DNA of 64,000 nt from Candidatus Doudnabacteria bacterium RIFCSPHIGHO2_02_FULL_43_13b (lineage in GTDB: Bacteria; Patescibacteriota; Doudnabacteria; UBA920; O2-02-FULL-48-8), in the NCBI GenBank assembly GCA_001777655.1, contig MFER01000013.1:2619-66618 (forward strand), read 5' to 3'. A program made the translations under genes and the position numbers. Of this stretch, positions 13,790 through 39,570 are shown piece after piece (the first letter of the stretch is position 1; every line of letters starts with the position of its first letter). The notes below the pieces were generated by a model that worked only from the letters and a program-made list of their open reading frames with translations, was not told the origin of the DNA and did not search any database.

Positions 13790-13801
13790 TGATGTTTATT
13801 T

Positions 13802-14485: not shown

Positions 14486-14508
14486 ATTCTGGAAACGTCA
14501 AACGTTTC

Positions 14509-14585: not shown

Positions 14586-14589
14586 TAAC

Positions 14590-18000: not shown

Positions 18001-18089
18001 ATTTTATTTAGCTTTAATAATATATAAGATTGTAATACAATGTGTTACCGTTGTCAAATCTTAAATTTGTTAATCCTCCTCGCTCAGTA

Positions 18090-18169
18090 TTGACAAAATC
18101 TTCAAAATCTGCTAGGATATGCTGTTTACATATTAATTTTGTCTTGCCAGAAGGACAGATATTATAATG
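18090..18169 (+). promoter_or_regulatory. two tandem sigma70-type promoters upstream of GC-island first gene
   Basis: TTGACA(18090-95)-17-TAGGAT and TTGTCT(18140-45)-18-TATAAT(18164-69); AAGGAAGG SD before ATG 18270. Confidence 0.45.
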
Positions 18170-18269
18170 TTATCTTTCCTTCCGGCAAAGAGAAATCTTC
18201 GCCGCCTATTTTTTACAGGAGGTTCTTTCATAAACGAATAGCTAGACAATATCACAAGGAAGGTGACGA

Positions 18270-19340: not shown

Positions 19341-20617
19341 ACGTTCCACTGTCAGTCACTGTGCAGTCCCTGGTCGCGGCCATGCTGGCCAAGTCCGGGC
19401 TCCGTTCCCAGTTCCACCTCATGATCGAGGTGGGGCTTGGCAAGCTCGAACAGGCCATCAGCGCGGCCTGCGACTACGTGCTGCTCCTCGACGTTTCCGG
19501 CTCCATGAGCGGGATCGTCGGCGAGGTAAGCAAGCTCGATGCGCTCAAGGCGGCATGCGAAAACGTGATCAACCGATTCAACCCGGATGACCGCGTGAGC
19601 ATCATCGCCTTCGATGAACAACCCACCACGATGATGGCGCTCGCCAACTGCGACCACCGCGGCAAGACCGAGGCGATCAACACCGTCTACGGACTTGGTC
19701 TCGGCGGTGCCACCTGCTTCGCTTCGGCTCTGCTGGCGGCCAAGCAGCTGCTGCACGATTCCAGTCACAAGCGCGCCGTCTTGTTCTTCACCGACGGCGA
19801 AAACACCGGCGGCGGGGATCCCCTCCCTGTCGTGACCCAGATGCGCGAAGCCGGCATCACTCTCTACGCCGGCGGCCTGGGCGTCAACAACCAAGGCGAG
19901 CAGGTGCTCGACCAACTGGCGGGAGCCAACTTCCGCTCGCTTACCACCGCGGCCGATGTCGACGCGTTCCTCAAGGACGCGGCGGCGCAGGCAGCCGGAG
20001 CCATCGTCACCAACGCGCAACTTCGGCTGACCCCTGTGACGTTCGCCCAGGTCAACAACTTCGACCTGGTCGCACGGAACGGAACGCCGAACTACGCGCT
20101 CGCAGACAGCACGATGCGCCTCCTGCCCATCGGCGATCTGGCCGAAGGCGACCGCTACCAGGCCTACCTCGGCCTGAACATCGTTCTGCCCGAAGACATC
20201 CGGGCCGGACGGCGAGCGTTCGGCAAGGTTGAGGTCATCGGCGACGTCGTGGCCATGGGCATCAAAGGCCAGGTGCTGGCCCAAACCCCCATCGCAGTCA
20301 TGTTCGGCGACCAGGCGGTCGCCACGGTCAACTCGACCGTCAAGGACATGATCAACACAGCGGCGACTGCCCGCGAGCTCTACTTGGCGGGACAGGCGAC
20401 CAACACGGCGGACGCGGCGGCTCACGTGGCCAACGCGCGCAAGACCGCGGCGTTCTCCCAGGACGCTGTGGCCTCGGCACTGCGGGCACAGATGAGCACG
20501 ATCGAAGCCCAGATTGCCAAGGATCCCGACGCGGCGCAGAAGGCGGCGCGGCGGGCGACCCGCGGCTTCTCGGCTGAAGATGCGGCGGCGGCACTCCGGA
20601 ACCTGCGTCAGAGCTAG
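19337..20617 (+). CDS. von Willebrand factor A domain protein (TerY-like) with Ala-rich C-terminal region
   Basis: MIDAS DVSGSMSG, GGATCFASAL, FFTDGENTGG; start overlaps upstream stop (ATGA). Confidence 0.75.
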   Translation: MNVPLSVTVQSLVAAMLAKSGLRSQFHLMIEVGLGKLEQAISAACDYVLLLDVSGSMSGIVGEVSKLDALKAACENVINRFNPDDRVSIIAFDEQPTTMMALANCDHRGKTEAINTVYGLGLGGATCFASALLAAKQLLHDSSHKRAVLFFTDGENTGGGDPLPVVTQMREAGITLYAGGLGVNNQGEQVLDQLAGANFRSLTTAADVDAFLKDAAAQAAGAIVTNAQLRLTPVTFAQVNNFDLVARNGTPNYALADSTMRLLPIGDLAEGDRYQAYLGLNIVLPEDIRAGRRAFGKVEVIGDVVAMGIKGQVLAQTPIAVMFGDQAVATVNSTVKDMINTAATARELYLAGQATNTADAAAHVANARKTAAFSQDAVASALRAQMSTIEAQIAKDPDAAQKAARRATRGFSAEDAAAALRNLRQS

Positions 20618-20674
20618 TCTCTGGCGCAGGAGCAAGTTCACACGCGACTTCAACCCCTTTCAAGGAGATTCATC

Positions 20675-21100
20675 ATGGTCTGCCCAAACTGCTCTACCCC
20701 GGTTCCGACTGGCGAACAGTTCTGCCCCGGATGCGGCACGGAACTGACCAGCGCTGACCCCACCAACACGCCGACCCCGACTACCGATGCCAGCGCCAGC
20801 TCCCAGCCGGCACTCGCCACGCTCACGTACGGCGCGACCAACATCCCACTGCGCGAGGGCAGCAAGGTGATCATCGCGCGGGAAGGCACAGACAAGTGCA
20901 CGCCCGACCTGGCCATCAACTCCGATGGCGTCTCCTCGACTCCGGTCGAGGTCAGTGTCGAGAACGGTGTGATCACCGTTCGCGATACCGGCACGAGCGT
21001 CGGGATCCGGGTGGTCAAGTACATCAAGCCCGGCGGCTCGATGACGGTCGAGCCCGGCGACATGGTGATGCTCGGCAACGAGATCATCGCCGTCGGGTAA
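20675..21100 (+). CDS. zinc-ribbon plus FHA-like phosphopeptide-binding domain protein
   Basis: CPNCS...CPGCG ribbon, Pro/Thr linker, then TLTYG...IIAREG...PDLAIN...VSSTPVEV...NGVITVRDTGTSVGIRV FHA-like pattern. Confidence 0.55.
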   Translation: MVCPNCSTPVPTGEQFCPGCGTELTSADPTNTPTPTTDASASSQPALATLTYGATNIPLREGSKVIIAREGTDKCTPDLAINSDGVSSTPVEVSVENGVITVRDTGTSVGIRVVKYIKPGGSMTVEPGDMVMLGNEIIAVG

Positions 21101-21124
21101 GTAGTCTCTAGCTATTCGAGTTCC

Positions 21125-21180
21125 GAGAGAAGGCGCGAAGGAAACCCAAATTTCCTTCCCCTTCTCTCATTCTTTCTTTA
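21125..21180 (+). terminator. rho-independent terminator inside GC island
   Basis: GAGAGAAGG...CCTTCTCTC stem with nested GAAGGAAA/TTTCCTTC, followed by ATTCTTTCTTTA. Confidence 0.5.
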
Positions 21181-21285
21181 TTGAGAATGCTATGGAATTA
21201 AAAATTTGATTTCATGGCGGTCTCTGTAAAGACCACAGTTCTTTTCGTCAACAATCAAGCACATTCCGCCAGGAGGCGGATCATC

Positions 21286-23031
21286 ATGGACAAATACTGT
21301 CCGTCATGCAAGCTTGTCCTCCCACCAACCGCGAAGCGGTGTACTGCTTGCGGTAAGATCGCAACGCTCTCCCCCAACACCGTCGTCAACTCCGGCGCTG
21401 ATCGATACACCATTGACTCGGTGCTCGGCATCGGCGGCATGGGCATCGTCTACCGAGCGACTGACAGCTTCAGCTTGACTGCCGTGGTCAAGCAGCTGCA
21501 CGTTGACAACCCGGCCGATCTGCCGGATGCCCAGCGCCGCTTCAAGCGCGAAGCCCAAGTCCAGGCCGGACTCAATTCCCCCTTCTATCCGGCCGGCTAT
21601 GGCTACTTTGTGGACCAAAACCTCGAGTTCATGGCCATGGAGTTCGTGGCTGGCCGAGATCTCGAAAAAACCCTGACGACTTTGGGCGGCAAGATGAGCG
21701 AAGATGAGGTGTTGCGGCTAGGAATCCAGATTTGTGACGGACTATCAGTCCTGCACAACCACATTGACCCCGCCACCAACACACCGGAACCGCACGTTCA
21801 CCGTGACATCAAACCGGCCAACGTAATTCTCCGGCCGTCGGGCCAGATCTGCATTCTGGATCTGGGCATCGCGCGGACCCTGAATCAATCGGCCGGCACA
21901 CAGGTGCGCGCCACGCGCGCTGGCACGTTCGAATACGCCAGTCCGCAGCAGGTTTCGGGAACGGACATGTCAATCCGCGACGATATTTATTCGCTCGCGG
22001 CGACCCTGTTCCATCTCGTCACCGGAGCGCCGTTTACTGGGGACTTCACCCAGCGTGCGGCGGAAATCGACGCTCTGCCTCCCACCTGGCGTGCCGCCTT
22101 CCGACGGGCAATCCACAACGACACCAACTTACGGCAGCGCAGTGTCGATGAGTTCAAGACCGATCTCATCGCCCTGCTTCCGCCGCAGTTGCGACCCGCC
22201 CTACCTGCCCCCGCGGGAGCCCCCGCTCCGATCCCAGCCACTGGCTTTCTTTCCATCCGCTGGCGAGTGACCCTCCCCTACATGACCAACCCTAACGAAT
22301 GGGTGCAGTCGGTAGCGGGCCAGGTCATCCAAGGCACCGTCGGCATGCCGGGCGTAAACATCGTCCCGATCATGACCGATACCGGAGCCGGGGCGATGGC
22401 TCACAACACGCGCGGCGCTTCGGTCAACACCGGGCCTCACGGCGACTTCGGACTGAATCTGCCTGACGTGACCATTCCAGTCACGGTGGACAGGCGGCAG
22501 ATCATCGTCATCGTCGAGGACCCCAACTCTGGACAGGAGCTCTATCGGGAAACCGTGGAGCTCAATCGGCCCGGGGTGGCGCGTCGGATACAAGCCCGTG
22601 GTGGGGCGGGTGTCCGAGCGGCTGCTCATGCCGCAGCCGCGCCGTTTCAGGCAGTCGGGCATGCTATGGCAGCAGGCGCTCGTGGCCTCGGCCGCGGGAT
22701 CGCTTGGCCGTTTCAGAAGCTGTGGCAAGTCGGAACTGCGTTGACGGGAATCAAAACCGTCCTCGCAATCGCCGGCCTGTTCATGGCTGCCACGCTCGTC
22801 CTGGCCCGGCTCCAGCAGTCGATGCCGTTTGTGCTCTACATCTGGCCGCATACGTGGATTGCGGCGTTGGCTTCGGCCTTCGTTGCATTCCGGATGCGCA
22901 GACGTGGCGGCATCTTCACGGCGAAAGTCAAACAGCGATCGCTCGGCCAAGCGCTGCGAAGCCCTGTCCTTATTGCCACCGTCACGATGTGGGCGGCGGC
23001 AACGATCGGCTGGGTCTTCGGTCCGCACTAA
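21286..23031 (+). CDS. zinc-ribbon plus Hanks-type Ser/Thr protein kinase with C-terminal TM segments
   Basis: CPSCK...CTACG ribbon; GIGGMGIVY...VVK, HRDIKPANVIL, DLGIAR, SPQQ; AGGAGG SD before ATG 21286 (ORF-track start 21214 probably too early). Confidence 0.75.
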   Translation: MDKYCPSCKLVLPPTAKRCTACGKIATLSPNTVVNSGADRYTIDSVLGIGGMGIVYRATDSFSLTAVVKQLHVDNPADLPDAQRRFKREAQVQAGLNSPFYPAGYGYFVDQNLEFMAMEFVAGRDLEKTLTTLGGKMSEDEVLRLGIQICDGLSVLHNHIDPATNTPEPHVHRDIKPANVILRPSGQICILDLGIARTLNQSAGTQVRATRAGTFEYASPQQVSGTDMSIRDDIYSLAATLFHLVTGAPFTGDFTQRAAEIDALPPTWRAAFRRAIHNDTNLRQRSVDEFKTDLIALLPPQLRPALPAPAGAPAPIPATGFLSIRWRVTLPYMTNPNEWVQSVAGQVIQGTVGMPGVNIVPIMTDTGAGAMAHNTRGASVNTGPHGDFGLNLPDVTIPVTVDRRQIIVIVEDPNSGQELYRETVELNRPGVARRIQARGGAGVRAAAHAAAAPFQAVGHAMAAGARGLGRGIAWPFQKLWQVGTALTGIKTVLAIAGLFMAATLVLARLQQSMPFVLYIWPHTWIAALASAFVAFRMRRRGGIFTAKVKQRSLGQALRSPVLIATVTMWAAATIGWVFGPH

Positions 23032-23058
23032 AACACCAAGGAGGTGTTCGATAGGTTT

Positions 23059-23115
23059 CGGAGGGAAGTGTTCAGGTTTCAACCCTGACACTCCCCTCCA
23101 CCCTTTCTTTATAAA
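23059..23115 (+). terminator. rho-independent terminator inside GC island
   Basis: GGAGGGAAGTGT...ACACTCCCCTCC stem then T-rich tract. Confidence 0.5.
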
Positions 23116-23264
23116 TCTTTTAGCTCAAATTTTTAGTTCCAAAACTTGGAGCCAGAAACTTGGGCTCAAAAATCCCAAGACGGTTCTTTTGAATCAAATA
23201 GTTTAGTTCTAGTTGTTCGTTTCGTCAACCAGCTTCAGAGCCGCCTAGGTGCGGGAGGTGAGTC

Positions 23265-24122
23265 ATGGCAGAGAAAGGCAGAATCGTGAAGCTGAATCCG
23301 AAAGGGTTTGGCTTTGTCTCCCGCGCTGGCGGCCGAGACGTGTTCGTTCCATCCTTCGAGCTCCAACGAAGTAGGGCTGGGATGAATGATGAAGTGGAGT
23401 TCGAGGTTGGTCCTGACCCGAGAAATCCGGGAAAGGAAATGGCTTCGAGCCTGACGGTGGTTGCGAAAGCGGCCCCGTCAGCGCCACCAACGCCACTCGC
23501 ACTTGGGGTGGCGTGGAAATTCGGTACGGTCGTCAAGGGCTTCTTGCCCGTGATGATCGTGGTGATGCGCGGAAACGTCGCTGCGCTGGATCTGATAGTG
23601 AAGTTGATGGCTAATGGGAAGCGAGTTTCGAATCCCAAGGCCACGCTTTCACCGGACAGCGCCGGCACGGTGACGTTCGTGGTCGAGCTGGTGAAGGTGG
23701 GTCTGCCAATGGATGCCAACCAGTGCGTGCTGATGGCCCAAATCAACGGGCAGATCTACAGCACGCTTTGGGAAGCCGCCAAGGCACCCGCGCCAACGCC
23801 AGCCAAGCCGCCCGAGCCACCGAAAGTGGAGCGGCTCAACATCAGCACGGACCGGATTTACACCTACCGCGTAACTTTCGCCCCTGGGGTTGAAGTCAAT
23901 GTGGAAGGAGTGATTCCGATCCAGTTCCGCCAGCACGGCAAGATCAGCTGGTCCAACCAGCCGGTCCCTGCCGAGCCTGACGGCACGCTGATGGTCGAAG
24001 TGCAAGTCACCCAAGACGGCGCGCGTGGAGACGTGTTCTTCCTCGCTGCCGGTCTTCGTTCGAAACCCGAATACGTCACCCACGTCAATCCGCCGGTGCG
24101 ACCCGCACCGGCCAAGAAGTAG
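23265..24122 (+). CDS. hypothetical protein with N-terminal cold-shock/S1-like OB domain and Pro-rich segments
   Basis: GRIVKLNPKGFGFVSRAGGRDVFVP...EVEFEV resembles CSD; remainder unknown. Confidence 0.4.
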   Translation: MAEKGRIVKLNPKGFGFVSRAGGRDVFVPSFELQRSRAGMNDEVEFEVGPDPRNPGKEMASSLTVVAKAAPSAPPTPLALGVAWKFGTVVKGFLPVMIVVMRGNVAALDLIVKLMANGKRVSNPKATLSPDSAGTVTFVVELVKVGLPMDANQCVLMAQINGQIYSTLWEAAKAPAPTPAKPPEPPKVERLNISTDRIYTYRVTFAPGVEVNVEGVIPIQFRQHGKISWSNQPVPAEPDGTLMVEVQVTQDGARGDVFFLAAGLRSKPEYVTHVNPPVRPAPAKK

Positions 24123-24133
24123 GAGAACGAACA

Positions 24134-24772
24134 ATGGCAGACACACCGAAGGGCGGCAGTCATACCATCAAAGATTTTCTTTTTGATGGTTTCCGTGAGC
24201 TGTTCGTCACCCACGGCCTCCCCATGATGGTCAAACTGGCTAACCGAGCCAGTGAGACAAGACTTGCGGAGAGAGAGGGGCGGAAACGCAACAAGCACTA
24301 CTTCGCGGCCGCCATGGTCAAGCTTCGGCTGCGCGATGGTCGCGCCGCCGACGTGATCGGCGACTTTGTCGATCACTGGCTCAACACTGACGCTGACCGC
24401 GAGGATTTTCAACACAACGCGGCCTGTGTCGGCACGGACAAGGACGAGAAGATGGGCGACACGGTGGAATTCCTCTGGCAGCTGGCACATCTGCCTGATC
24501 ACGCCGCTCGTGAAGTCCATCTGACTGCTCTTGGCTTCATCGGCGCACGCAGCGTCGACATGGCTGAGAAGGCAGTGGAGTTGCTCAAGCGGGTTCGTGA
24601 CGAGGTCAAGGACCTGCCGGCTGATGCCAAGAAGAAATTGAACGAAGGCACCAAGGCACTGCGGGAACTCAACAACAAGCAGTGGATGCAGAATGCCGAG
24701 AAGTCCTCGGCAGCATTCAGACAGACAGCAGCCACCCGGCTGACGGGCTACAGAGCTCGCCGGCGTTCGTAG
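24134..24772 (+). CDS. hypothetical protein
   Basis: 212 aa GC-rich ORF with SD (GTAGGAGAA) at correct spacing; no motif recognised. Confidence 0.35.
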   Translation: MADTPKGGSHTIKDFLFDGFRELFVTHGLPMMVKLANRASETRLAEREGRKRNKHYFAAAMVKLRLRDGRAADVIGDFVDHWLNTDADREDFQHNAACVGTDKDEKMGDTVEFLWQLAHLPDHAAREVHLTALGFIGARSVDMAEKAVELLKRVRDEVKDLPADAKKKLNEGTKALRELNNKQWMQNAEKSSAAFRQTAATRLTGYRARRRS

Positions 24773-24783
24773 GAGAGACTCAC

Positions 24784-25635
24784 ATGATCACGATCCTTGG
24801 AATTCTCATCTACGGGCTGATTGTCTGGTGCTTGTTCAGTCCGCGCGTTCGCAACCAGGTCCGCGACGTCCTCGTCGGGGCCTGGGACTACCTGCAACTG
24901 GGTGGCCTCAGCGCCTACGACGCTGCGGTCGCTTTCCTCTACGGGCTCATCGTGCTCGTGGTGGTGGACATCGTGGTCCTAATCATCGCAGTGGCGATCG
25001 GCATCCCCGGGATCTTGGTTGCCTTCTTCGTCACCAACGCGCTGCTGTGGTTCGTGCCGATGTATGTGCTGTGGCTTCTGCATCTGCCAGTGGCAGCGGC
25101 AGGGGCCCAGATCAGGTGGTTGGGAACAAAATTGGGGTCCGTCCCACTCTTGTTTTTCCCATTTTTCCCAGTCCGACTGATCGGCCGGTGTGTTCACGCA
25201 GTTGGCACGATCGTCGTGCTCTCGGCAGCGCTGGCGCGCTGGATGACCGGGTTGCTGGTGCAAGTCACTCTCATCTCCTTGCTTCTGTCAGGGCTGGCCC
25301 TGCTGGACTTGGAGATGGGATGGCACATCGTCAATCCGTTCACCATGACGATGGCGGGACTGCTGTGGATGACGATCACATCACTGCAGATCTTCCGCCA
25401 AACCCACCCGGGTTCTGTCGGAATCAAAATCCTGGGGCGGGCGGCAATCGGTGTACTACTCGCGGTCGGAGTAGTCCACTACTGGCCGCTTTGGAAAAGT
25501 GTCGGGCTCAGCGTTCTGAGCTTCGATTTCGGCGATGAGGAAATGATGTTTCGAGGCCTCATCGTCGTGGCGCTGCTGGCGGCTCTCGTCGTTGGCCTGC
25601 GCACTCGCAGCTCATCATCAACAACCGCTCGCTGA
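24784..25635 (+). CDS. hypothetical polytopic membrane protein
   Basis: TAGGAGAG SD then ATG 24784 (MITILGILIYG...); 7-8 hydrophobic helices. Confidence 0.45.
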   Translation: MITILGILIYGLIVWCLFSPRVRNQVRDVLVGAWDYLQLGGLSAYDAAVAFLYGLIVLVVVDIVVLIIAVAIGIPGILVAFFVTNALLWFVPMYVLWLLHLPVAAAGAQIRWLGTKLGSVPLLFFPFFPVRLIGRCVHAVGTIVVLSAALARWMTGLLVQVTLISLLLSGLALLDLEMGWHIVNPFTMTMAGLLWMTITSLQIFRQTHPGSVGIKILGRAAIGVLLAVGVVHYWPLWKSVGLSVLSFDFGDEEMMFRGLIVVALLAALVVGLRTRSSSSTTAR

Positions 25636-25647
25636 GGAGACACGGAC

Positions 25648-26436
25648 ATGAAAAAAGTGCTAATCAGCGTCGCGACGTTCGTGTTCATCCTCGCAGCGGG
25701 ATCTGGGGTTGGCTTGCTGTGGACCAGTTTCTTCCCGCCGGAAGAGCGGGGGGTCAGGGTTGCCACGACTGATGCCAACGGAATGGTCAAAGCGCACGCA
25801 GGTGACGCCAAGACCATTCTCAAGCAAACCGGCTTCCGCGGCGGCAACGGCCGGGTCAGCGTGACGATGTTTAAGGACACCAGAACACCGGTGTCTATGG
25901 ATATCGCCAATGCCAGGCAAGCTCGCGACGAGCAAATCGCCATTGCTCGCGGCGGGTTCCTGCCAGCGCCGGATCGGTTCCTCGAAGGCTACACCCACGA
26001 CTGGGTGAGCAGCGGGATTCCGGTCTACACCTGCACGCACGTTACGGCAGCGGGTAGGATCACTCGAGATCCCATCACCGCTGCCGGGCCAGACGGCATC
26101 AATCTGGATGCCATGAATGCAGAAACGCGCAGCGCGTTTGTGCAAGAACATGGCGACAGGGCCAAGGTGCTCCCTGGGGTTCCCTGGGGAACGTTCATCG
26201 GCAAAGTCTGCGCAGACGCTGGCGGGAACAGCTGTCAAACGCCGTTCCCAATCGGCCAAAGCGCGTACCTGTCGGCTGAGCGGGTCGGTGCAGGGACGTT
26301 GTGGATCTGGACCAACGGTTTCGTAGCCCAATCAAGTACGGGGCTGTTGAATCGTTCGGACTTCAACGTCTATCAGGGCGGCTTCCGGTTCGAGCACGAG
26401 GCCGCGCCTGAATACAAGTGTAAGGGGGGGTTCTAG
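25648..26436 (+). CDS. hypothetical secreted protein
   Basis: Signal peptide MKKVLISVATFVFILAAGSG; GAGGAG SD. Confidence 0.4.
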   Translation: MKKVLISVATFVFILAAGSGVGLLWTSFFPPEERGVRVATTDANGMVKAHAGDAKTILKQTGFRGGNGRVSVTMFKDTRTPVSMDIANARQARDEQIAIARGGFLPAPDRFLEGYTHDWVSSGIPVYTCTHVTAAGRITRDPITAAGPDGINLDAMNAETRSAFVQEHGDRAKVLPGVPWGTFIGKVCADAGGNSCQTPFPIGQSAYLSAERVGAGTLWIWTNGFVAQSSTGLLNRSDFNVYQGGFRFEHEAAPEYKCKGGF

Positions 26437-26473
26437 TCCGTCGGCAGGTTCGCTTGCCAGCGGAGCAACACCG

Positions 26474-26520
26474 GGGTGTTGGGAAGACCACAAATCTTCT
26501 CACACCCCGCTTTTTTATTT
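26474..26520 (+). terminator. rho-independent terminator
   Basis: GGGGTGT...ACACCCC stem followed by GCTTTTTTATTTT. Confidence 0.5.
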
Positions 26521-26572
26521 TGCGAAGCAAAATACCCCGACCTTTAGCGTCGGGGTCATAAATATCAATGCC

Positions 26573-26601
26573 TTGACTTTTTGTAGCTTTTTTGATATTA
26601 T
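26573..26601 (+). promoter_or_regulatory. sigma70-type promoter for last island gene
   Basis: TTGACT-17-TATTAT, then AAGGAGGG SD 7 nt before ATG 26691. Confidence 0.4.
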
Positions 26602-26690
26602 ACTTCGTCGCATTCATCATTTCTTTTTTCGCGACATTTATACGATACGTTCAATTCGCACACTCTCAAGTCCAAGGAGGGACTTTACCA

Positions 26691-27685
26691 TGAAGCGCGC
26701 TCTACTCGTCGCTCTCGTTTTCGTCGCACTGGGCATGCCAGCAATGGCTGCTCAGACGCCACCCTCACCGATTTTCGAGCAAAAGCTCGAGGCGGTGGCG
26801 GTGAAAACTGTTACTTCGGTTCCCGTGCTTCTCGCGGAGATCGCGAAGAAGCACCAGCTCCAAGTCTCGATCGACGAAAAACTGGACATGGATCGGATGT
26901 ATTTGGGCGAAGTCCCGGCTGGGACGCTGAAAAGCCAGATCGAATTTCTGGCCAAGCAGTGGGACGGCAGCGCAAGTTTGGTCGGAGGCGACTCGGTCGT
27001 CATCCTCTCGACCAAGTCTTTGCCCACCAAGGCCAAGGAGACCCCGACCGCAACCACGCCGCCACCCACCACGCCCCCCCAACCCCTGCCACAGCAAACG
27101 ACAGTTGCCCGGTTGCCCTACCCATCACTGTCGGCCGCAGTAATGTCCGACAGCATGCTACCGATAACCGGGCCCACCTGGATGGACCTTCGGATGCAAG
27201 AATACAACGCCTGGGCAGAAGCCAACCAGGCATACCGAACATTCCGGTCCGCCCAGCCGTACTACTTCGGGGCTGACCAGGTCTATTCGGACGCGTACTA
27301 CCAAGGCGGGTACGGCGGTGGACTCATGTGGGGCAATCAGTTGCTCCGAATCAAAGGAGCCGCCACCCACGGCTACCTAAAAATAAACGCCATCGGCGAC
27401 ACGAAGTTTATCAAGTACGTCGTGGTGCTGCGACAGGACACGGACGGCGTTTGGATTACGGAGGGCTCCGCTGGAAAGTCCTTCCGAGATTTTCACGAGC
27501 CGATCGAGCTACCCGTCGGACGGTGGCGACTGCGGTTTGAGCTACGGAGGGATGGAGTGACCAAGTACTTGGAAGAGGTGTTTAACATCGAATCCAAGTA
27601 CGATCTATTCCATCCCAAGCAGTACGCCATTTCGGAAGAAATGATGAGAAGCTTTGGTACAACCGAAGCTATCATCAGGCGCTGA
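26691..27685 (+). CDS. hypothetical secreted protein with Pro/Thr-rich linker
   Basis: Signal peptide MKRALLVALVFVALGMPAMAAQ; TPTATTPPPTTPPQPLPQQTT linker; ORF-track start 26573 is upstream read-through. Confidence 0.45.
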
Positions 27686-27699
27686 CGGCGACGCTGAAA

Positions 27700-27745
27700 A
27701 CGCCAAAGGCCGACACCCTCCGGGTGTCGGCCTCTTTTTTTATAT
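27700..27745. terminator. bidirectional hairpin terminator at right edge of GC island / end of pilin array
   Basis: GGCCGACACCCTCCGGGTGTCGGCC perfect stem flanked by A-run and T-run. Confidence 0.55.
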
Positions 27746-27760: not shown

Positions 27761-28123
27761 TTAGATTCCGCGACCTCCCGGTAGCAGCGCATTCCCAATT
27801 ACTATCACAATAACGTAAGATAGAATAATTATTATCAACCCGATGATCGAATTTTGAATAATTTTTTTGGCTGATTCTGCTTGTTCTTCATTCCCGGCAG
27901 ACGTGATGTAGCGAAAACCGCCGTAAATCAGAAAGGCTACTGCCAGAACACCAACGACTCCCAAAAATACTTTTATATAGTAATTGAATACCGTTGTAAA
28001 CGTAGACGATTGGTTTCCTGGAAGAGTAGTTTGATTAATTGGAATAATTTGTTGAGCCAAAACAATCACTGGCACCAAGAGGCTGAATAGGGCAAGTTGA
28101 ATTGTCTGTTTCAGATTCTTCAT
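27761..28123 (-). CDS. type IV secretion system pilin-like protein (VirB2/TrbC-like, CPR type), paralogue 1
   Basis: Signal peptide, two hydrophobic helices separated by GGFRYITSAGNEEQAESAKKII loop. Confidence 0.55.
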   Translation of the reverse strand: MKNLKQTIQLALFSLLVPVIVLAQQIIPINQTTLPGNQSSTFTTVFNYYIKVFLGVVGVLAVAFLIYGGFRYITSAGNEEQAESAKKIIQNSIIGLIIIILSYVIVIVIGNALLPGGRGI

Positions 28124-28139
28124 TTTAGAGTTTTTAGGA

Positions 28140-28511
28140 TTAAACCTGACCGCTGACTAGGGCGTTGGAGATAACGCGGACGATGACGAAAGCCAAGATA
28201 ATCACGACGATACCGATAATGGCGTTGGTGATAATCTTTTTGGCTTGTTCGGCCGTCTCTTCATTCCCGGCAGATGTGATGTAGCGGAAACCGCCGATGA
28301 TTAAGAACAATACAGCAATCAAGCCGGCAATGGCCAGAGCGATATTGATGATCCGCAGCACGAATGTCGAAACCCGATCATCGCCCGGCAAGCCGGTTCC
28401 TCCCGGGCTGGGAGTTTGAAATTGTGCCAATGCCACGGGAGTAAGAACGAAAGCCAAAGTCAAAACTATCGACAGTATCGGGACGAGTTTAGAGGTTGAA
28501 AGTTTTTTCAT
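28140..28511 (-). CDS. T4SS pilin-like protein, paralogue 2
   Basis: GGFRYITSAGNEETAEQAKKII loop motif, same architecture. Confidence 0.55.
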   Translation of the reverse strand: MKKLSTSKLVPILSIVLTLAFVLTPVALAQFQTPSPGGTGLPGDDRVSTFVLRIINIALAIAGLIAVLFLIIGGFRYITSAGNEETAEQAKKIITNAIIGIVVIILAFVIVRVISNALVSGQV

Positions 28512-28594
28512 CTTTGTTTTTCCCTTTCTATTTCTTATCCGCCGAAGCTTTATGCGAAGGCGGATATTTCGACCTTTAAGGATATTTAAATTAA

Positions 28595-28960
28595 TTAAAC
28601 CTTGCCAAAGAAAGCGTTCATTATCACTACCACAATTATGTAAGAGAAGATCGTAACGACTAAACCTATTATAGCATTAGTCAGGGTTTTTTTGCCAGTG
28701 GTGGCCGCTTCCTCGTCCCCGCGGGAGGTAATGTATTGAAAACCGCCCAGGATAATGAATAAAACTGAAAGCAAGCCAACAATGCCTAAGAGTGCTTGGA
28801 CAATAAACAGTAAAATTCCGGCAAAGGTATTGCCACCGGTTCGGTTGGCGAAATTCACCAAATACTTATCGGCGGGGTTGGTAAAATTAACCGCCCAAAC
28901 AGTTAACGGAGCAATCAAACCCGCTAGGCTGGGTAAAACAAATTTTGTGATTTTCTTCAT
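28595..28960 (-). CDS. T4SS pilin-like protein, paralogue 3 (start at internal MKKITKF; track start 29041 likely too early)
   Basis: GGFQYITSRGDEEAATTGKKTL loop motif. Confidence 0.5.
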   Translation of the reverse strand: MKKITKFVLPSLAGLIAPLTVWAVNFTNPADKYLVNFANRTGGNTFAGILLFIVQALLGIVGLLSVLFIILGGFQYITSRGDEEAATTGKKTLTNAIIGLVVTIFSYIIVVVIMNAFFGKV

Positions 28961-28962
28961 GT

Positions 28963-29619
28963 CTAGCCTCCGAAAAAAGTTAGGGTTGCTCGAACCAAGA
29001 CGTACGATAGTATTATAACACCTAAACCAATCACCGCCCACTGCAGGCTTTGTTTGGCGCTGGTAACTTGTTCTTCATCCCCCCGGGCAGTGGCGTAACG
29101 AAAGCCGCTGACGATGATCATCAAAATCGCCATGATACCAACCACTGACAAAAAGCCGGTTAACATCCGGATCAAAAAATCCAAGAAGGTATTATCAAGG
29201 AGCGGATTACGCACTGGGTTGTTGCCAATATAGGAACTCGGGGCCAAATCTTTCGCTCCCAAATAATCGGCCATGGCATTGACAATGATAAAAGCAAATA
29301 AAGACAAAATTAATCCTGACAGCGCCCACTTCAGTCCATCCTTGGCTGTGGTTAAGGCTTCAGAGTTGCCTTGGGCAACAATCATCCGAAAACCGGCAAA
29401 GATAATCATTATTAGAGCGGTAATGGCGAAAAAATTCGTAAAAGAGGCAATCACAGCAAAGATAAACTCGCCCAAATCGTCAAGAGAATACCGAATCGGA
29501 TTGCACAAATTCGTGTTGGTGCTACCCGGGACACAATCACTGCTTTGTTGCGCCAACGCGACGGAGGAGGTTGAAAATAAAACCAAACCAATAAATAAAG
29601 CGATAAGAAAAATTTTCAT
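28963..29619 (-). CDS. tandem-duplicated T4SS pilin-like protein (two pilin domains fused), paralogue 4
   Basis: Two copies of the helix-loop-helix unit (AGFRMIVAQGNSEALTTAKDGL and SGFRYATARGDEEQVTSAKQSL). Confidence 0.5.
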   Translation of the reverse strand: MKIFLIALFIGLVLFSTSSVALAQQSSDCVPGSTNTNLCNPIRYSLDDLGEFIFAVIASFTNFFAITALIMIIFAGFRMIVAQGNSEALTTAKDGLKWALSGLILSLFAFIIVNAMADYLGAKDLAPSSYIGNNPVRNPLLDNTFLDFLIRMLTGFLSVVGIMAILMIIVSGFRYATARGDEEQVTSAKQSLQWAVIGLGVIILSYVLVRATLTFFGG

Positions 29620-29623
29620 ATAA

Positions 29624-30037
29624 TCATCTGATATTTTTCAAAATATTATCCAAAGCCCCGGCTCCCGGGTTAGTACTGGTCAACAACCCGACAATTACAT
29701 TGACCAATAAATACGCGGACATAATCAAGAAAAATCCAATGATCGCGTGCTTAAAAGTATCTTTACCGACGGTGATCCGCTCTTGGTTGCCGCCGGAATT
29801 CATCATTTCCCACCCTGCCCAAAGAATAAAGAAAATCGAAACCAACCAGGCCCAGGCCAGCAGATAATTGATTATCCGCTCAACCGTAAAAACCATATCA
29901 ACCAGCTGACAACCTGTTTGGGCGCTGCCATCGGGATTCCGACCGCCGCAGGTGATGAGTTGCGCCGAAGCAAAATTAGCAGTTAGTAACACTGCGAGAA
30001 AAAAACTGGCCAGGATAATTTTTATTTTTGGTTTCAC
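29624..30037 (-). CDS. T4SS pilin-like protein, divergent paralogue 5
   Basis: AGWEMMNSGGNQERITVGKDTF loop motif, signal peptide. Confidence 0.45.
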   Translation of the reverse strand: MKPKIKIILASFFLAVLLTANFASAQLITCGGRNPDGSAQTGCQLVDMVFTVERIINYLLAWAWLVSIFFILWAGWEMMNSGGNQERITVGKDTFKHAIIGFFLIMSAYLLVNVIVGLLTSTNPGAGALDNILKNIR

Positions 30038-30081
30038 TGAAGTTTAGACAATCGTAAAGTTTCTACATTATACCATAAACC

Positions 30082-31392
30082 TCATCGTCTTTGCAAATTT
30101 AAATTGATTTGTTGGGCGGCATTGCGCAGCGCCTCATTGGCTTCAAAATTTCTTAAAATTACGTCATCAATCATTTTCAAAAATACGCTTTCAAACAAAT
30201 TGGCGTCTTGCTTATAAACACTGCGCGCAGTCAAAGCGTTTTCGGCAAACACGCCGATTTGGGTATCCGAAGCTTGAATAGGCAGAATATCTTTGCGGGA
30301 AGCCGGCAGTTTGTGTTTGGCGTAATATTTATTCAATTCCGTCTGACCGGAAATAAACTTCAAAAAATCCCAAGCGGCCTCAGAATTGTTGGACGTTCGC
30401 GAAACCGCTTCCCCCCAGTAATTGGCAAAGTTAACTTTCAATCCCGCTTCGCTGGTTTGAGGAATTGCCGCTACGTCCCAATTCAAATTCGGCGCCTTGT
30501 CCATGATCACGGGAATCATATAAGAGTAGTTAATCATCATGGCGACTTTCCCTTGGGTGAAGGCGTCTACGCTAAAATTGGATTTAGCATTCCAGTTATA
30601 GGTCGTTTTGGCCGGCTGGGCAAATTGGGTAAAAAACAACAGCGCCGCCTCGCCGGGATTGAAGTTGTTATCGCTACCCGCCAAGTCTTGCTGCTGATCA
30701 AAAGTTGCGGAATTAAAATCGTCGGAATAAAATTTCGTGCCGTTTTGTAGCATCAGTAAAGACAAAATATCCACAGCCCGATTAATGTTACTACCAGTCC
30801 CCAAGGCTATCCCCGAACGGGAAAAACTGCCCGGTTGGGAAATTTTGGTTAACTTTGGCACATTAGCGATTACTTCAGCCCAAGTGGAGGGGGGCTGGGA
30901 AATGCCAGCCGATCCCAATAGATCTTTATTGTAATAAAGAGCCATGACATCCACTGAAAGAGGGATGGCAAAAATCTTATCTTCCCTCACAAAATCGGAA
31001 TAAGCGACATCCACAAAAGTATCTTTATATGTTCTTAAGTTCATCAGCGCACTCGGCATGGGGGAGAGTTTGTCTGAATGCTTCGGTAGCCAATCGTTAT
31101 GAATCGAGAAAATATCAGGTCCCGTGCCAGCCGCAATGGCGTTGACTAATTCTTGCTCGTAGGTCGTGATGTCTTTTTTGACAAATGTGATTTGGATATT
31201 CTTGTGACTCGATTGATAATCAGAAATCAAATCCTGCACATTTTCATTCTCTTCAAAAGTCTTCCACCAGGTTAAAGTGACTTTATCTGAAAGAGGGCGC
31301 GGGCCAGAGCCCCCGCTAAAAAATAAGGCACCGGCCACGATCAGCAGCAGAACCAAAATCCCGCCTAAAATATAGTATTTTTTATTATTCAC
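30082..31392 (-). CDS. ABC transporter extracellular solute-binding protein (family 1, sugar-type)
   Basis: N-terminal TM anchor, 436 aa, TWWKTFEENEN... family-1 SBP pattern. Confidence 0.65.
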   Translation of the reverse strand: MNNKKYYILGGILVLLLIVAGALFFSGGSGPRPLSDKVTLTWWKTFEENENVQDLISDYQSSHKNIQITFVKKDITTYEQELVNAIAAGTGPDIFSIHNDWLPKHSDKLSPMPSALMNLRTYKDTFVDVAYSDFVREDKIFAIPLSVDVMALYYNKDLLGSAGISQPPSTWAEVIANVPKLTKISQPGSFSRSGIALGTGSNINRAVDILSLLMLQNGTKFYSDDFNSATFDQQQDLAGSDNNFNPGEAALLFFTQFAQPAKTTYNWNAKSNFSVDAFTQGKVAMMINYSYMIPVIMDKAPNLNWDVAAIPQTSEAGLKVNFANYWGEAVSRTSNNSEAAWDFLKFISGQTELNKYYAKHKLPASRKDILPIQASDTQIGVFAENALTARSVYKQDANLFESVFLKMIDDVILRNFEANEALRNAAQQINLNLQRR

Positions 31393-31450: not shown

Positions 31451-32350
31451 CTAAAATTTCAAAGATTTCAAAAACTCTTTAAATTCTTTTCGCAAGTCGT
31501 CGTGTTTCAAACCAAACTCTACTACTGCCTTTAGATATTCTAATTTATTCCCGCAATCATAAAATTTACCATTTTTTATTTCCACTCCATAACATTTTTT
31601 CTGCTCCTCCAATAGTATATTGATCGCATCAACATAGACCAGCTCTTGCCCACTATTACTCTTTTCCAGCCGACGTTTTGCTTCCTCAATAGCCTCAAAT
31701 ATTTCTGGACTATATATAGCTCCACCGGGAATCGCCAAATCTGAATTTATTTTGCCCCTACCTGGCTTTTCTATAATTTGATTGACTTGCATTACTCCAT
31801 CCGCAATTATATTCCCGGCAGCAAAAGCATAACGATCATAATCTTGGGGTTTAGTGGCTTTGATACAACTAAGCACTGCGCTTCCTCCAAACTTCTCGTA
31901 TGTCGCCACTAGTTGTTGCGCTCGGGTCGGAGTCGCATCCATAAAATCGTCACCCCATAACACCATAAATGGTTCGTCACCTATCAAATGTTTCGCATTC
32001 AAAATCGGGGTTGCATTACCAATTGGTCCTCTTTGCCTAATGTATGTAAAATTAGCCAAATCACCAATTCGACGAATCTCTTCAACTTCTTTGAGTTTCC
32101 CCGCTTCTTCCAATCGTTTCTCCAATTCAAATGGATAATCAAAATGATCTTCGATATTACGTTTAGACCAGCCAGTGACAATAATAATATCTTCAATGCC
32201 GGCAGAAACTGCATCTTCCACGACATACTGAATAATCGGTTTGTCGACAACCGGTAACATTTCCTTGGGTTGGGCCTTGGTTGCCGGTAAAAACCGGGTG
32301 CCGAAGCCGGCCGCCGGAATAACTGCTTTGCGAACTTTTTTCATAGTCAT
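31451..32350 (-). CDS. galU: UTP-glucose-1-phosphate uridylyltransferase
   Basis: KAVIPAAGFGTRFLPATKAQPKEMLPVVDKP canonical GalU N-terminus. Confidence 0.85.
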   Translation of the reverse strand: MTMKKVRKAVIPAAGFGTRFLPATKAQPKEMLPVVDKPIIQYVVEDAVSAGIEDIIIVTGWSKRNIEDHFDYPFELEKRLEEAGKLKEVEEIRRIGDLANFTYIRQRGPIGNATPILNAKHLIGDEPFMVLWGDDFMDATPTRAQQLVATYEKFGGSAVLSCIKATKPQDYDRYAFAAGNIIADGVMQVNQIIEKPGRGKINSDLAIPGGAIYSPEIFEAIEEAKRRLEKSNSGQELVYVDAINILLEEQKKCYGVEIKNGKFYDCGNKLEYLKAVVEFGLKHDDLRKEFKEFLKSLKF

Positions 32351-33926: not shown

Positions 33927-34592
33927 ATGACAACTAAAGTTTTTTCCGCAGCATTAGTGGGGCTTGATGCTGCACCGGTAGAGGTGGAAGTAGATATCTC
34001 AGGGGGGCTGCCAAAAGTAATTGTCGTTGGGCTTCCCGACACTGCGATCCAAGAGGCTAGAGAGCGAGTCAAATCGGCAATTAAAAATTCTAACGCGATT
34101 TTCCCGCCCAGCCGGGTGGCGGTGAATTTAGCCCCAGCGGACTTGCCCAAAAATGGCACCCATTTTGATTTGCCAATCGCGATTTCAATTTTGCTGAATT
34201 CCGGCCAAATCTTTTTTGATCCCAAAAACAAATTATTCGTTGGCGAATTAGCCTTAGATGGCAATTTGAGAGCGGTCTCTGGCATTTTGCCAATTGCTTT
34301 GATGGCCAAACAACTTGGCTTTAAGCAATTATTCATTCCGAAAGACAATAACCAAGAAGCCGGCTTAGTCGATGGAATCGAAATCATTCCAATCAAAAAT
34401 CTTTATGAGATTATCGGGTATTTGCAAAATTTGATTAAAATAGCTCCTTTGCCCAAACCAAACTGGAACCGATTCTTAAAATCCCCCGAAACTTTATTCG
34501 ACATGAAATTAATCAAGGGCCAAGAAGCCGCGAAGCGGGCGCTAGAAATAGCCGCTGCGGGTGGGCACAATATTCTTAAGTTATATTCCTAA
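33927..34592 (+). pseudogene. comM: comM/yifB (Mg-chelatase-like AAA+ competence protein) 5' fragment, interrupted by insertion
   Basis: ChlI/YifB N-terminal domain; ends ...ALEIAAAGGHNIL-KLYS*, i.e. stops at the first codons of Walker A. Confidence 0.75.
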
Positions 34593-34726: not shown

Positions 34727-35635
34727 ATGCAAAAAGATTTAACTTTAAGCCCTGAAGCAAATCACGACAACGCTAAGAAGATTTTTGATAATTTGGATGT
34801 AAGCGAATCTACCAGAAAGGATTATCAATACAGAGTTGGATTATTCGTGGATTACATCCGTAGAAATAATTTTAGTCGCAACAGTTATTTAGAATACAAG
34901 CGATATCTAGCTGGAAGAAATGATGTGTCTACTTCCACGAAAAATAAATTTTTGATTGTCGCCAAAATCTTTTTAAGAGAACTTAGCCGCCTTGGTGTGA
35001 TGCAATCAGACATCACTCAGAACATAAAGACCTTCAAAGAAAATCACAAACATAAAAAAGAAGGTTTGAATGAAGAAGAAATGCAGAAGTTGGTAAGTTG
35101 GTTGCGTGAGCTTCCCTCCACTCCACAGAATACTAGACTGAGAGCCATTATAGCGTTACTCACGCTTAACGGCCTGCGACAGATTGAGATAGTAAGGTTA
35201 GACTTCAAGGATTTAGATTTAGTAGCCAAAACCGCTTTCGTTTTGGGGAAGGGGCAAGATGACCGGGAAATAGTTCATTTGCATCCCGAAGCAGTCAAAG
35301 CAGTCAGTGAATACTTGAAAGTAAATAAAATAGCTGATGGAGCTTTGTTCGTAAGTATCAGCAACGGTAGTAGAAACCATCGCCTGACAACCAGAGGACT
35401 AAGACAGATTGTGCAGAAGAGCCTTAAAAGTTTGGATATTGAAAGATGTGTTCACGGCTTCCGACATTATTTCGCTACGGCATTGATTAACAGCTACAAG
35501 GGAGATTTGCTGGAAGTGAGTCGGTATACAAGACATAAAAGTATCCAAATGCTTGAAGTATACAATGATAATATAAAGCAGAAGGCAGATTTACCACGAT
35601 ACTATAAGGTCTTTGAATCAATTAACTTTAGTTAG
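34727..35635 (+). CDS. tyrosine recombinase / phage-type integrase
   Basis: R (LNGLRQIE), HGFRHYF (H-x-x-R), terminal EVY catalytic Tyr. Confidence 0.8.
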   Translation: MQKDLTLSPEANHDNAKKIFDNLDVSESTRKDYQYRVGLFVDYIRRNNFSRNSYLEYKRYLAGRNDVSTSTKNKFLIVAKIFLRELSRLGVMQSDITQNIKTFKENHKHKKEGLNEEEMQKLVSWLRELPSTPQNTRLRAIIALLTLNGLRQIEIVRLDFKDLDLVAKTAFVLGKGQDDREIVHLHPEAVKAVSEYLKVNKIADGALFVSISNGSRNHRLTTRGLRQIVQKSLKSLDIERCVHGFRHYFATALINSYKGDLLEVSRYTRHKSIQMLEVYNDNIKQKADLPRYYKVFESINFS

Positions 35636-37663: not shown

Positions 37664-38959
37664 TTAGCCTTTTGATGCAGGAGTTGTAGAGAAGAGCTTA
37701 AGGATAATTTCAATCTTACGCCGTAGCTCGTCAAAACCGACAATCTCAACATCTTTATTACTGTTCCTGAAAAGTTCAAAAGATTTTAGTTGTGGTTTTT
37801 TTAAATCAGAGACATTCCCAGCCACTACAATGCATTTTGAGTTAAACGATTCTATATCCTCGCCGTTCATAACTGAGTAAAAATCTTTTTGGAGAGTATG
37901 TCTCTGGTCTAGCACCTGGTTGATTGCTCCGCTTAAACCTCTACTGATTGAAAACACGTCCTTGCCACGATAAGGTCTTCCCTCAAGAAGCTTACTTTTA
38001 TGAGTTTTAATTTCAATTATGGCTAAGTTTTTTGAGAACTCGCTTTTATAAATAAAATCTGCGTACTTACCACCTTTGTTTTCGAAACTTTTGCCGCCTA
38101 CATAGGCTTGGTTTTTAAAAATAACCATCGGGTAAGAAAAGAGCTGAGAGAATATCCAGCCGTTCTCTTTGAAAAACGCCTGCCATTTTTTTTCCAGCGT
38201 TTCTGTTTCAGTCTTTTGTTCAATTAAAGCATTAAAATTTTCTAAAATAGTTTCGATGAACACCTTATCAATAGCTTCCTTTGTAGCTATAACTTTTTCG
38301 TGAGACACATTTGAATTTGGCAGTGTCTGAATAAGCTGTGTTATCTTGTCAATATCATAATCAGAGAGTTTTTCATTCGTTAATCGGTTCTCTTCAATGT
38401 AGTTGCCTAGGGAGCCAGTTACATATTTTTTATCTTCAATTTCAAATTTCTTAGGAAATATTGAATGAAGAATATCACTGGCAAGAATATTAATCTCTTG
38501 TCTGTGTCTTTTAAGAAGTGGTGAGATACGGTTGTAGGCCTTATCTAAATCTGAAGCGTTAAATACAATTTTGTTTCTATTGGGAAAAAATTCACTAGCT
38601 AATTTAGAAGATACAATTATATTTGAGATGATGGGGCACTTCTCTTCAAGGAAGTAAATTAGCGGACTTAATTCTCTAGTAAATCCATAACCATTTGCCC
38701 AAGTTTTTAGAAATCCCCTGGGTAGGGTTTCGGGCATCTCGTGGTACTCAATGCATTGAATAAATTTGTATTTATTCTCTCCAGTCTTGCGGTTATACGG
38801 GTAATGTAAAACTATCTTCTTTTTCTTAAATATTTCTCTAGATAATAACTCAAATCCATTTTCTCCATCGGTATAGAAATAAACATCCTTGGTAGCTAAG
38901 GATTTATGTAAAGTTTCTTCGGGGTCTGCACCAGTAATTTTAATTTTATTCTTATTCAT
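37664..38959 (-). CDS. Shedu-like (DUF4263) PD-(D/E)xK nuclease-domain protein
   Basis: C-terminal KKWQAFFKENGWIF...YADFIYK...LAIIEIK...AINQVLDQRH...CIVVAGN...VEIVGFDELRRK mirrors DUF4263 core. Confidence 0.5.
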   Translation of the reverse strand: MNKNKIKITGADPEETLHKSLATKDVYFYTDGENGFELLSREIFKKKKIVLHYPYNRKTGENKYKFIQCIEYHEMPETLPRGFLKTWANGYGFTRELSPLIYFLEEKCPIISNIIVSSKLASEFFPNRNKIVFNASDLDKAYNRISPLLKRHRQEINILASDILHSIFPKKFEIEDKKYVTGSLGNYIEENRLTNEKLSDYDIDKITQLIQTLPNSNVSHEKVIATKEAIDKVFIETILENFNALIEQKTETETLEKKWQAFFKENGWIFSQLFSYPMVIFKNQAYVGGKSFENKGGKYADFIYKSEFSKNLAIIEIKTHKSKLLEGRPYRGKDVFSISRGLSGAINQVLDQRHTLQKDFYSVMNGEDIESFNSKCIVVAGNVSDLKKPQLKSFELFRNSNKDVEIVGFDELRRKIEIILKLFSTTPASKG

Positions 38960-39332: not shown

Positions 39333-39570
39333 AAGGATTTTCTATATTGTAGCACTATTTACAAACCATATAAAATGATATAATAACATCACAATTTAAT
39401 AAGACCTAAATCTTTCAATTTTTTGATTGAAAGACATGGACTCAAAACCTGAAACATATTGAACCCTCACCAGGTCCTGTTTCAGGTTATATGGGGAAAC
39501 CCATATAGGTGCCGTAAGGCATCACTGGTGGGGGCTTTATGTTGCCCACCTCCAGAGAAAGAAAAAATTT

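Follow-up and report, generated by a model that had tools for sequence, protein, structure and literature searches.

The window analysed here is a stretch of 64,000 nucleotides from Candidatus Doudnabacteria bacterium RIFCSPHIGHO2_02_FULL_43_13b (contig MFER01000013.1, positions 2,619 to 66,618), a tiny bacterium from groundwater at Rifle. On the minus strand of the window, between 27761 and 30037, five consecutive open reading frames (ORFs) form an array of pilin genes, numbered g5 to g1 in the order of transcription, with six helical-hairpin units in total. The original prediction, made from the window itself, had described five consecutive minus-strand genes with a signal segment, two helices and a loop, one of them carrying two units, and had assigned them to the pilin family of type IV secretion systems (T4SS). 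The description was borne out by the ORFs and their hydropathy, and the double unit was located in g4, with four helices and two stretches matching PF18895 (T4SS_pilin). The hidden Markov model check proposed for the family was also run, and all five genes passed the curated gathering score of PF18895 (26.6 bits) with 38.7-60.7 bits, 12-34 bits over the cut-off.

Every product has an N-terminal hydrophobic, signal-like segment closing in a small-x-small site (ASA↓QL, ALA↓QQ, VWA↓VN, ALA↓QF and VLA↓QQ), the signal-peptidase sites being assigned by the -3/-1 rule. After the signal segment come 15-25 variable residues and then, according to hydropathy and domain alignment, two strongly hydrophobic helices connected by a short polar loop (GGFRYITSAGNEE type); with its two units, g4 contains four of these helices. 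Around the loop, a G, a G, an E and a K are invariant in the domain alignment, and the loop of g5 is divergent (WAGWEMMNSGGNQE). The signal peptide of g5 is predicted to end at ASA↓QL and its exposed N-terminal segment contains two Cys, while the exposed segments of g1 and g3 contain N-x-S/T sequons. In g4, the Cys pair C29/C39 (LCNP motif) is invariant among the fused homologues (19 of full length, 38-100% identity), and a linker of about 25 residues separates helix 2 from helix 3. The AlphaFold models of g2 (helices 46-79 and 84-121; block-mean predicted local distance difference test score, pLDDT, of 82-93 across residues 51-110) and g4 (helices 49-81, 86-120, 145-177 and 182-215; mean pLDDT 68) are helix-loop-helix hairpins with 4-residue loops.

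The genes are closely packed, with spacers of 4 nt (g5-g4), 2 nt (g4-g3), 83 nt (g3-g2) and 16 nt (g2-g1). The start of g3 was corrected from the GTG at 29041 in the mechanical ORF list to an ATG that sits 2 nt past the g4 stop, its ribosome-binding site GGAGG falling within the 3' end of g4; public gene calls for g3 likewise give 121 aa. Core identities among the members range from 21 to 58%, the upper value being that of g1 and g2, which are nearest paralogues in the pairwise matrix. The GC content of the array is host-like (0.44-0.45). At least 23 contigs, the longest of 156-165 kb, carry the locus with an identical g4, and they come from several independent assemblies; the locus is neither an assembly artefact nor a chimera. 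Both g4 and g2 have identical database entries, namely the hypothetical proteins A3B10_02825 and A3B10_02815, respectively, from Candidatus Doudnabacteria bacterium RIFCSPLOWO2_01_FULL. The features of the array and of its surroundings are collected in Table 1.

Table 1. Pilin array, putative expression signals and other features of the 64-kb window (positions in the window; a dot in the strand column stands for both strands).
Feature	Position	Strand	Description
g5	29624-30037	-	137 aa, GTG start; first pilin gene; PF18895 38.7 bits
g4	28963-29619	-	218 aa; tandem-fused pilin, two units; PF18895 60.7 bits, two stretches
g4 unit 1	~29254-29619		Includes the signal peptide
g4 unit 2	~28966-29253
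g3	28595-28960	-	121 aa from ATG at 28960; third pilin gene; PF18895 42.6 bits
g2	28140-28511	-	123 aa; fourth pilin gene; PF18895 56.8 bits
g1	27761-28123	-	120 aa; fifth pilin gene; PF18895 44.3 bits
8-mer AAGGTCGA	28569-28576	-	Non-coding, in the 83-nt g3-g2 spacer; sole occurrence in 64 kb
Stem-loop	28536-28566	-	8-bp GC-rich stem between AAGGTCGA and g2; no U-run after it
Sigma-70-like promoter match	30067-30096	-	TTGCAA, 18 nt, TG-TATAAT; overlaps the 3' end of the solute-binding protein gene
Solute-binding protein, carbohydrate-type	30082-31392	-	436 aa, N-terminal membrane anchor; directly upstream of g5
GalU-like UTP-glucose-1-phosphate uridylyltransferase	31451-32350	-	Upstream of the solute-binding protein gene; NTP_transferase; TIGR01099
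Terminator-like hairpin, bidirectional	27707-27733	.	Flanked by the stop codons of g1 and of the convergent 331-aa gene
Secreted protein	26690-27685	+	331 aa, convergent; signal peptide, Pro/Thr-rich linker, GC-rich
GC-rich region	18000-27700		Between FtsH and the array
comM, N-terminal part	33927-34592		Split gene
comM, C-terminal part	46290-47129		Split gene
Tyrosine integrase	34727-35635		comM insert
Shedu SduA	37664-38959		comM insert
LOOT RNA (Rfam RF03000)	39403-39523	+	Full-length, comM insert
Large serine recombinase	44614-46347		comM insert
RhuM/Fic-domain protein	51507-52508	-	Among housekeeping genes
FtsK	52893-55091		Complete chromosomal FtsK domain set
PIN toxin and overlapping MazE-like antitoxin gene	62865-63517	-	Among housekeeping genes

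The age of the array was evaluated by comparison with related loci. Relatives with a g4 identity of 42-54% (L007, L008 and the contig of P0006) also have five pilin genes, the second one fused, and share the neighbourhood RecA ... LexA, ComM, GalU, solute-binding protein (SBP), five pilins, a variable region, FtsH, RNase III and SMC. Counting the window, L007 and the 80 loci returned by a scan of species-representative genomes, the pattern single-double-single-single-single is present in 18 loci. Apart from the window, 16 of these are Doudnabacteria-type and one is from Saccharimonadia; some loci carry seven or eight pilin genes. When the window was compared with L007, each pilin best matched its own positional counterpart. 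Judged by sequence comparison, the recurring order and the positional best matches show that the array is old and fixed, an ancient five-gene unit and not a recent amplification. Positional orthology between the arrays of Doudnabacteria and Saccharimonadia was not resolvable, g2 being the best match to nearly every member.

The rates within the array are unequal. Between the window and L007, the identity is 78% for g2 but 47% for g5 (with its Cys pair retained), 43% for g4 and g3, and 44% for g1, the neighbours GalU, SBP and FtsH giving 56, 67 and 85%, respectively. More than 120 database clusters match g2 at 66-83% identity, and over the 18 loci the mean pairwise identity of the hairpin core is 69% for g2 versus 37-50% for the other members. 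The exposed N-terminal segments are the least conserved parts, with 31-47% identity in the same loci, and the Cys pair in this segment is kept in g5 and in g4 unit 1. These values fit a set of specialised subunits, and not a pool of variants, in which g2 would be the main structural subunit and the other four fast-evolving accessory ones. A conserved five-subunit set with one slow-evolving member provides a candidate for the main subunit. Such unequal rates among array members were not described in the literature searched, and they merit follow-up.

Tandem fusion is not limited to g4. A profile of the six units matched 90,173 cluster representatives at E ≤ 0.001 and 22,135 at E ≤ 1e-10, and all of the 150 best-scoring representatives had at least two matched stretches, with a maximum of 17. 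The poly-pilins P0140-P0287 have one N-terminal signal peptide followed by seamless hairpin repeats with short linkers; the profile matched 17 stretches in P0149 (1775 aa), 11 in P0171 (1147 aa) and 8 in P0141 (820 aa), and Pfam confirmed the presence of multiple PF18895 stretches. Three-unit genes occur in two Doudnabacteria loci (L030, 7686-8777, and L034, 8543-9604), and in L034 the counterparts of g5 and g4 are joined in one gene. Tandem-fused poly-pilins are widespread, and no description of natural multi-unit VirB2-like pilins was found in the literature searched; they merit follow-up. Since each unit would begin and end outside the membrane, the units could be chained, and natural covalent pilin multimers of this kind constrain subunit packing. 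Cleavage of g4 between its units by signal peptidase at the conserved A-x-A/G that closes helix 2 was also considered; it remains an idea only, as such a site is missing from the linkers of other poly-pilins.

The spacer between g3 and g2 contains the 8-mer AAGGTCGA. In at least 17 distinct related loci the 8-mer lies 20-90 nt upstream of the g2 orthologue (sites in L007, L013-L025, L029, L031, L032, L034, L038 and L046), strictly conserved between AT-rich, unconserved flanks. ViennaRNA folded the spacer at -17.8 kcal/mol, and hairpins of unrelated or related sequence are found at the matching place in L015, L016, L018, L020, L034 and L038. In some loci the 8-mer is followed by a good sigma-70-like promoter, as in L007 (TTGACT, 17 nt, TATAAT). 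As a guess, this short conserved motif may be a control element for the main subunit; it was not found described in the literature searched and merits follow-up. About 30 nt upstream of g5, a consensus scan gave a promoter match of 10/12. Since the region overall was not enriched over shuffled sequences, this match is taken as a lead only.

Upstream of the array, a GalU-like protein and an SBP are encoded on the same strand. The SBP matched SBP_bac_1 (2e-30) and also SBP_bac_8, and its nearest solved relatives are sugar- and maltose-binding proteins (MalE type). The GalU-like protein reached 273 bits with the galU model TIGR01099, under the cut-off of 326.8. A Pfam scan that covered every window ORF of at least 300 aa and many shorter ones found no ABC permease or ATPase for the SBP. 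The genomic context was then counted on 81 loci (the 80 scanned loci and L007, window excluded), 15 of which were too short for a context class. In 44 of the 81, the gene that directly precedes the array on its strand encodes an SBP homologue and usually has galU in front of it; most gaps measure -13 to +110 nt, and stop and start overlap in several cases. In another 22, all Saccharimonadia-type, the array stands beside a divergent 947-aa membrane protein, a PrgI protein and a VirB4-like ATPase (P-loop_TraG, AAA_10, DUF87), the last two confirmed by Pfam. The SBP-linked and T4SS-linked sets are disjoint, no locus showing both contexts. The order galU-SBP-pilin is kept at SBP identities of 34-41%, where the ComM and FtsH neighbours are gone, which argues for something beyond inherited gene order without proving a shared function. 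This tight and widespread link gives a hint of what the structure might handle or how it might be modified. No description of the SBP/galU linkage was found in the literature searched, and it merits follow-up.

Patescibacteria account for a large share of the bacterial diversity that is still uncultured, and they live in attachment to host cells. The kind of feature reported here is already known, since VirB2-like arrays of Patescibacteria were described in 2025. In that survey of 3,035 Patescibacteria genomes with PF18895 and PF04956 (TrbC/VirB2), VirB2-like pilins were found in 1,948 assemblies also having VirB4, with a pilin near virB4 in 1,135 of them, and 441 arrays of 2-11 pilin genes were reported, with a mean identity of 25% and a maximum of 54% (PMC12102498, Quinonero-Coronel et al. 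2025). In Southlakia epibionticum ML1, a six-pilin array inside a T4SS cluster is essential (PMC10633639, Wang et al. 2023; PMC12857230), and a pilus-like conduit to the host was suggested for this system. With T4SS and pilin array essential in the one Patescibacteria species tested, the locus offers handles on function.

The present locus is a further, well-preserved member of this known array kind and no new kind of system. Its five adjacent genes, with spacers of 2-83 nt and core identities of 21-58%, correspond to an array as defined in the survey, i.e., at least two highly divergent pilin genes that are in tandem or have one non-pilin gene between them (PMC12102498). PF18895, tandem divergent paralogues on the same strand, a chromosomal location and no relaxase nearby are common to both. 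In contrast to the described arrays, virB4 is not adjacent here and the array follows an orphan sugar-binding protein gene and galU; its members show positional orthology with very unequal rates; the conserved two-unit fusion is an architecture without mention in PMC12102498; and the host class, Doudnabacteria, is absent from the discussion in the text of that paper. In its Table S1, at least one Doudnabacteria-class genome is marked VirB4 = Yes (PMC12102498).

Compared with the TrbC/VirB2 pilins (Agrobacterium VirB2, RP4 TrbC), the array proteins have in common the long signal peptide, two hydrophobic helices with a short loop and a similar size of about 70-90 mature residues. They differ in that no VirB1 or VirB3-B11 is adjacent, the host is monoderm and several paralogues are present instead of one gene, as well as in scoring under the PF04956 threshold (27.9 bits) and in showing no hhalign similarity to Agrobacterium VirB2. 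Some PF18895 relatives do pass PF04956, namely the g3 orthologue of L007 and the poly-pilins P0141, P0149 and P0171, and through them an indirect bridge may lead from the PF18895 proteins to TrbC/VirB2. The NCBIfam model NF045849 (Mbov_0395/MMCAP2_0565 pilin-like conjugal transfer proteins; cut-off 40 bits) is passed by g1 (41.2 bits), g2 (41.4) and g4 (58.5), while g3 (31.6) and g5 (11.3) fail. Both these proteins of Mycoplasma integrative conjugative elements (ICEs) and the present ones come from wall-poor or monoderm lineages with MPF-FATA-like T4SS; here, however, there is an array and not a single gene, and no CDS5/CDS17-type ATPases are nearby.

The reading that we favour, with moderate confidence, is that of a chromosomal VirB2-like pilin array whose subunits, with g2 as the main one, would be built into a pilus-like filament or conduit by a T4SS with its genes at another place in the genome. 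Sec would insert each precursor, and signal peptidase I would cut it at the predicted small-x-small site; what is left would be a hairpin of two helices, its termini both extracellular and its short polar loop (GNEE) facing the cytoplasm, and the subunits would be stored in the membrane. In g4, the linker of about 25 residues would connect the end of unit 1 with the start of unit 2, both of them outside; since this is topologically compatible, g4 could act as a covalent dimer. A T4SS of the VirB4, VirB6 and PrgI type, as in other Patescibacteria, would then extract the subunits from the membrane and polymerise them to the pilus-like filament or conduit at the contact with the host cell. The main building block would be g2, while g1, g3, g4 and g5 would be accessory or exposed and adapting to the host surface. 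With spacers of 4 and 2 nt, g5, g4 and g3 may be translationally coupled, and the 83-nt spacer ahead of g2 and g1, with AAGGTCGA and the hairpin, probably gives the main subunit an expression level of its own.

Several results weigh against the T4SS-assembled array. The PF04956 threshold was missed by all five proteins, the best being g4 with 21.6 bits (E 2.5e-4), followed by g1 with 12.1 and the rest without a match. When a g2-centred alignment was compared by hhalign with four VirB2/TrbC sequences (Ti-type and related plasmids), the probability was 0.7% and the E-value 0.084; since both alignments were shallow, this is a weak negative. A sequence-profile search of the PDB with the six units gave only designed helical repeats at E of about 0.1, and the Foldseek matches were generic helical hairpins and bundles only. 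The VirB2/TrbC-like character claimed in the original prediction holds at the level of family annotation and not in the PF04956 score or in profile-profile similarity to Agrobacterium VirB2. As it had also stated for VirB4 and VirD4, none of VirB4, VirD4, VirB6 or PrgI was present among the scanned window ORFs. The flanking sequence, which it had recommended for inspection, carried no annotated T4SS gene in 10 kb past each window end; these extensions hold TruD, a Mur ligase, Wzy_C, bactofilin, NusA, ClpP and a 2510-aa ORF without Pfam match. No T4SS gene is linked to the array over about 28 kb to one side of it and about 44 kb to the other, and 0 of the 44 SBP-linked loci have T4SS genes within 10 kb. 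The main and accessory roles proposed above are read from conservation alone, and no filament of PF18895 proteins was reported in the literature searched. The T4SS link of the array is drawn from the family annotation and from Saccharimonadia relatives with arrays beside VirB4 and PrgI, and for this genome it is putative.

The main alternative to T4SS assembly, held to be unlikely, is a membrane or cell-surface module coupled to the SBP and independent of T4SS, which would capture or channel host carbohydrates together with the SBP (and GalU-derived UDP-glucose), or whose pilins would be glycosylated, the name "pilin" then reflecting shared ancestry only. It would account for the SBP directly upstream in more than half of the loci, often with overlapping stop and start, for the persistence of this linkage, usually with galU, at low SBP identity after loss of the ComM/FtsH synteny, for the lack of overlap between the 44 SBP-linked and 22 T4SS-linked loci, for an SBP with no permease or ATPase partner among the scanned window ORFs, and for the sequons in the exposed segments of g1 and g3. 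However, members of this family also lie inside T4SS clusters, where they are essential, and conserved adjacency in one broad lineage can be inherited order without shared function. To our knowledge, no transporter architecture is built from cleaved two-helix hairpins. The weak Pfam matches to DctQ and TctB are far under threshold and probably compositional. A related proposal, which we hold to be rather doubtful, is that the SBP-linked arrays (galU, orphan SBP and pilins) might be a functional module distinct from the T4SS-embedded arrays of Saccharimonadia, in which a pilin-like filament or conduit with a dedicated carbohydrate receptor would take host sugars and covalent tandem fusions would be a general way of building.

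The original prediction had taken the paralogues for an amplification that serves antigenic or functional variation of a surface filament. Recently amplified paralogues giving antigenic or phase variation, as proposed for the VirB2 of Bartonella and Anaplasma, would agree with the divergence of the members (21-58% core identity) and with the fact that four of the five evolve faster than the neighbouring housekeeping genes, above all in their exposed N-terminal segments; the analogy is also offered by the 2025 survey (PMC12102498). The 18 loci with fixed order, the positional orthologues and the constrained g2 speak otherwise, and this explanation is now improbable. Gene number, order and fusion are conserved across many species, no near-identical copies are present (the closest pair, g1/g2, has 58% core identity; the comparison included no search for repeats, inversion sites or recombination signals), one member is strongly constrained and all genes are apparently expressed from one strand as a unit. 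The Bartonella and Anaplasma virB2 paralogues, which share with the array several tandem divergent VirB2-type genes, are lineage-specific amplifications beside T4SS genes and presumed to provide antigenic variation, whereas here the set is ancient, with fixed order and one strongly conserved member.

It is very improbable that the genes encode generic small membrane proteins with no filament or secretion role, matched by Pfam through hydrophobic composition. Many sub-threshold Pfam matches of the array proteins to unrelated membrane families and the non-specific fold searches would be in line with this, but the PF18895 scores lie 12-34 bits over a curated cut-off, the polar loop motif and its flanking charged residues are conserved beyond hydrophobicity, 22,135 family representatives were found at E ≤ 1e-10 and relatives are embedded in T4SS clusters. 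Scarcely credible is a remnant of an integrated conjugative element whose pilins were left after loss of the rest, for, although g1, g2 and g4 pass a model built on Mycoplasma ICE proteins and mobile DNA is near (comM element at 34.6-46.3 kb, GC-rich region at 18-27.7 kb), dozens of species have the array in one and the same housekeeping setting (ComM-GalU-SBP-array-...-FtsH-RNase III-SMC), so that an ICE context is absent, and the array has host-like GC and carries neither a relaxase nor a coupling protein or integrase, while the elements near it are absent or different in relatives.

The other scanned window ORFs are housekeeping or mobile-element genes, including RNase Y, SMC, FtsH, FtsK, IF-2, RecA and LexA. 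Downstream of g1, the array meets a convergent gene for a 331-aa secreted protein without Pfam or NCBIfam match. The hairpin between both stops has 12 bp, 9 of them G-C, with a T-run on the plus strand and an A-run on the opposite side; the "shared terminator" of the original prediction is therefore real as a sequence feature. Homologues of the 331-aa protein occupy the same position in L014 (57%) and L015 (34%), with a related cluster in L018, L020, L023 and L038, any link of this neighbour to the array being conjectural.

The GC content of the region between FtsH and the array is 0.55-0.66, against about 0.42, and it encodes PP2C, VWA, zinc-ribbon and Ser/Thr kinase proteins as well as unknowns. 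At the equivalent site, L007 has a different, non-homologous GC-rich insert (12000-15100; 0.58-0.63), which hints at a hotspot of repeated insertion on the downstream side of the array. A simple foreign island ending at the terminator, which the original prediction had the array abut, was rejected: since homologues of the 331-aa protein adjoin the array in other species and the insert of the relative differs, the boundary of the region is not simple.

Upstream, the gene for the Mg-chelatase-like ComM, intact in relatives (506 aa), is split by an insert of ~11.7 kb. The insert contains a tyrosine integrase, an N6/N4 methyltransferase with a BglII-type endonuclease, Shedu SduA, several unknown ORFs and a large serine recombinase, and it looks like an integrative element with defence cargo in the classic comM hotspot. 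Within it, a full-length LOOT RNA (78.9 bits; gathering score 46.4) was found just upstream of unknown ORFs and beside a small sigma70_r4-like gene.

Just past window position 1, the ORF of at least 2510 aa without Pfam match (L011, 13290-20555) adjoins ClpP and NusA, and it could be a giant surface protein of the kind typical for Patescibacteria. Finally, the housekeeping genes of the window are interspersed with genes for a RhuM/Fic-domain protein and for a PIN toxin, the latter overlapped by a MazE-like antitoxin gene (Table 1).

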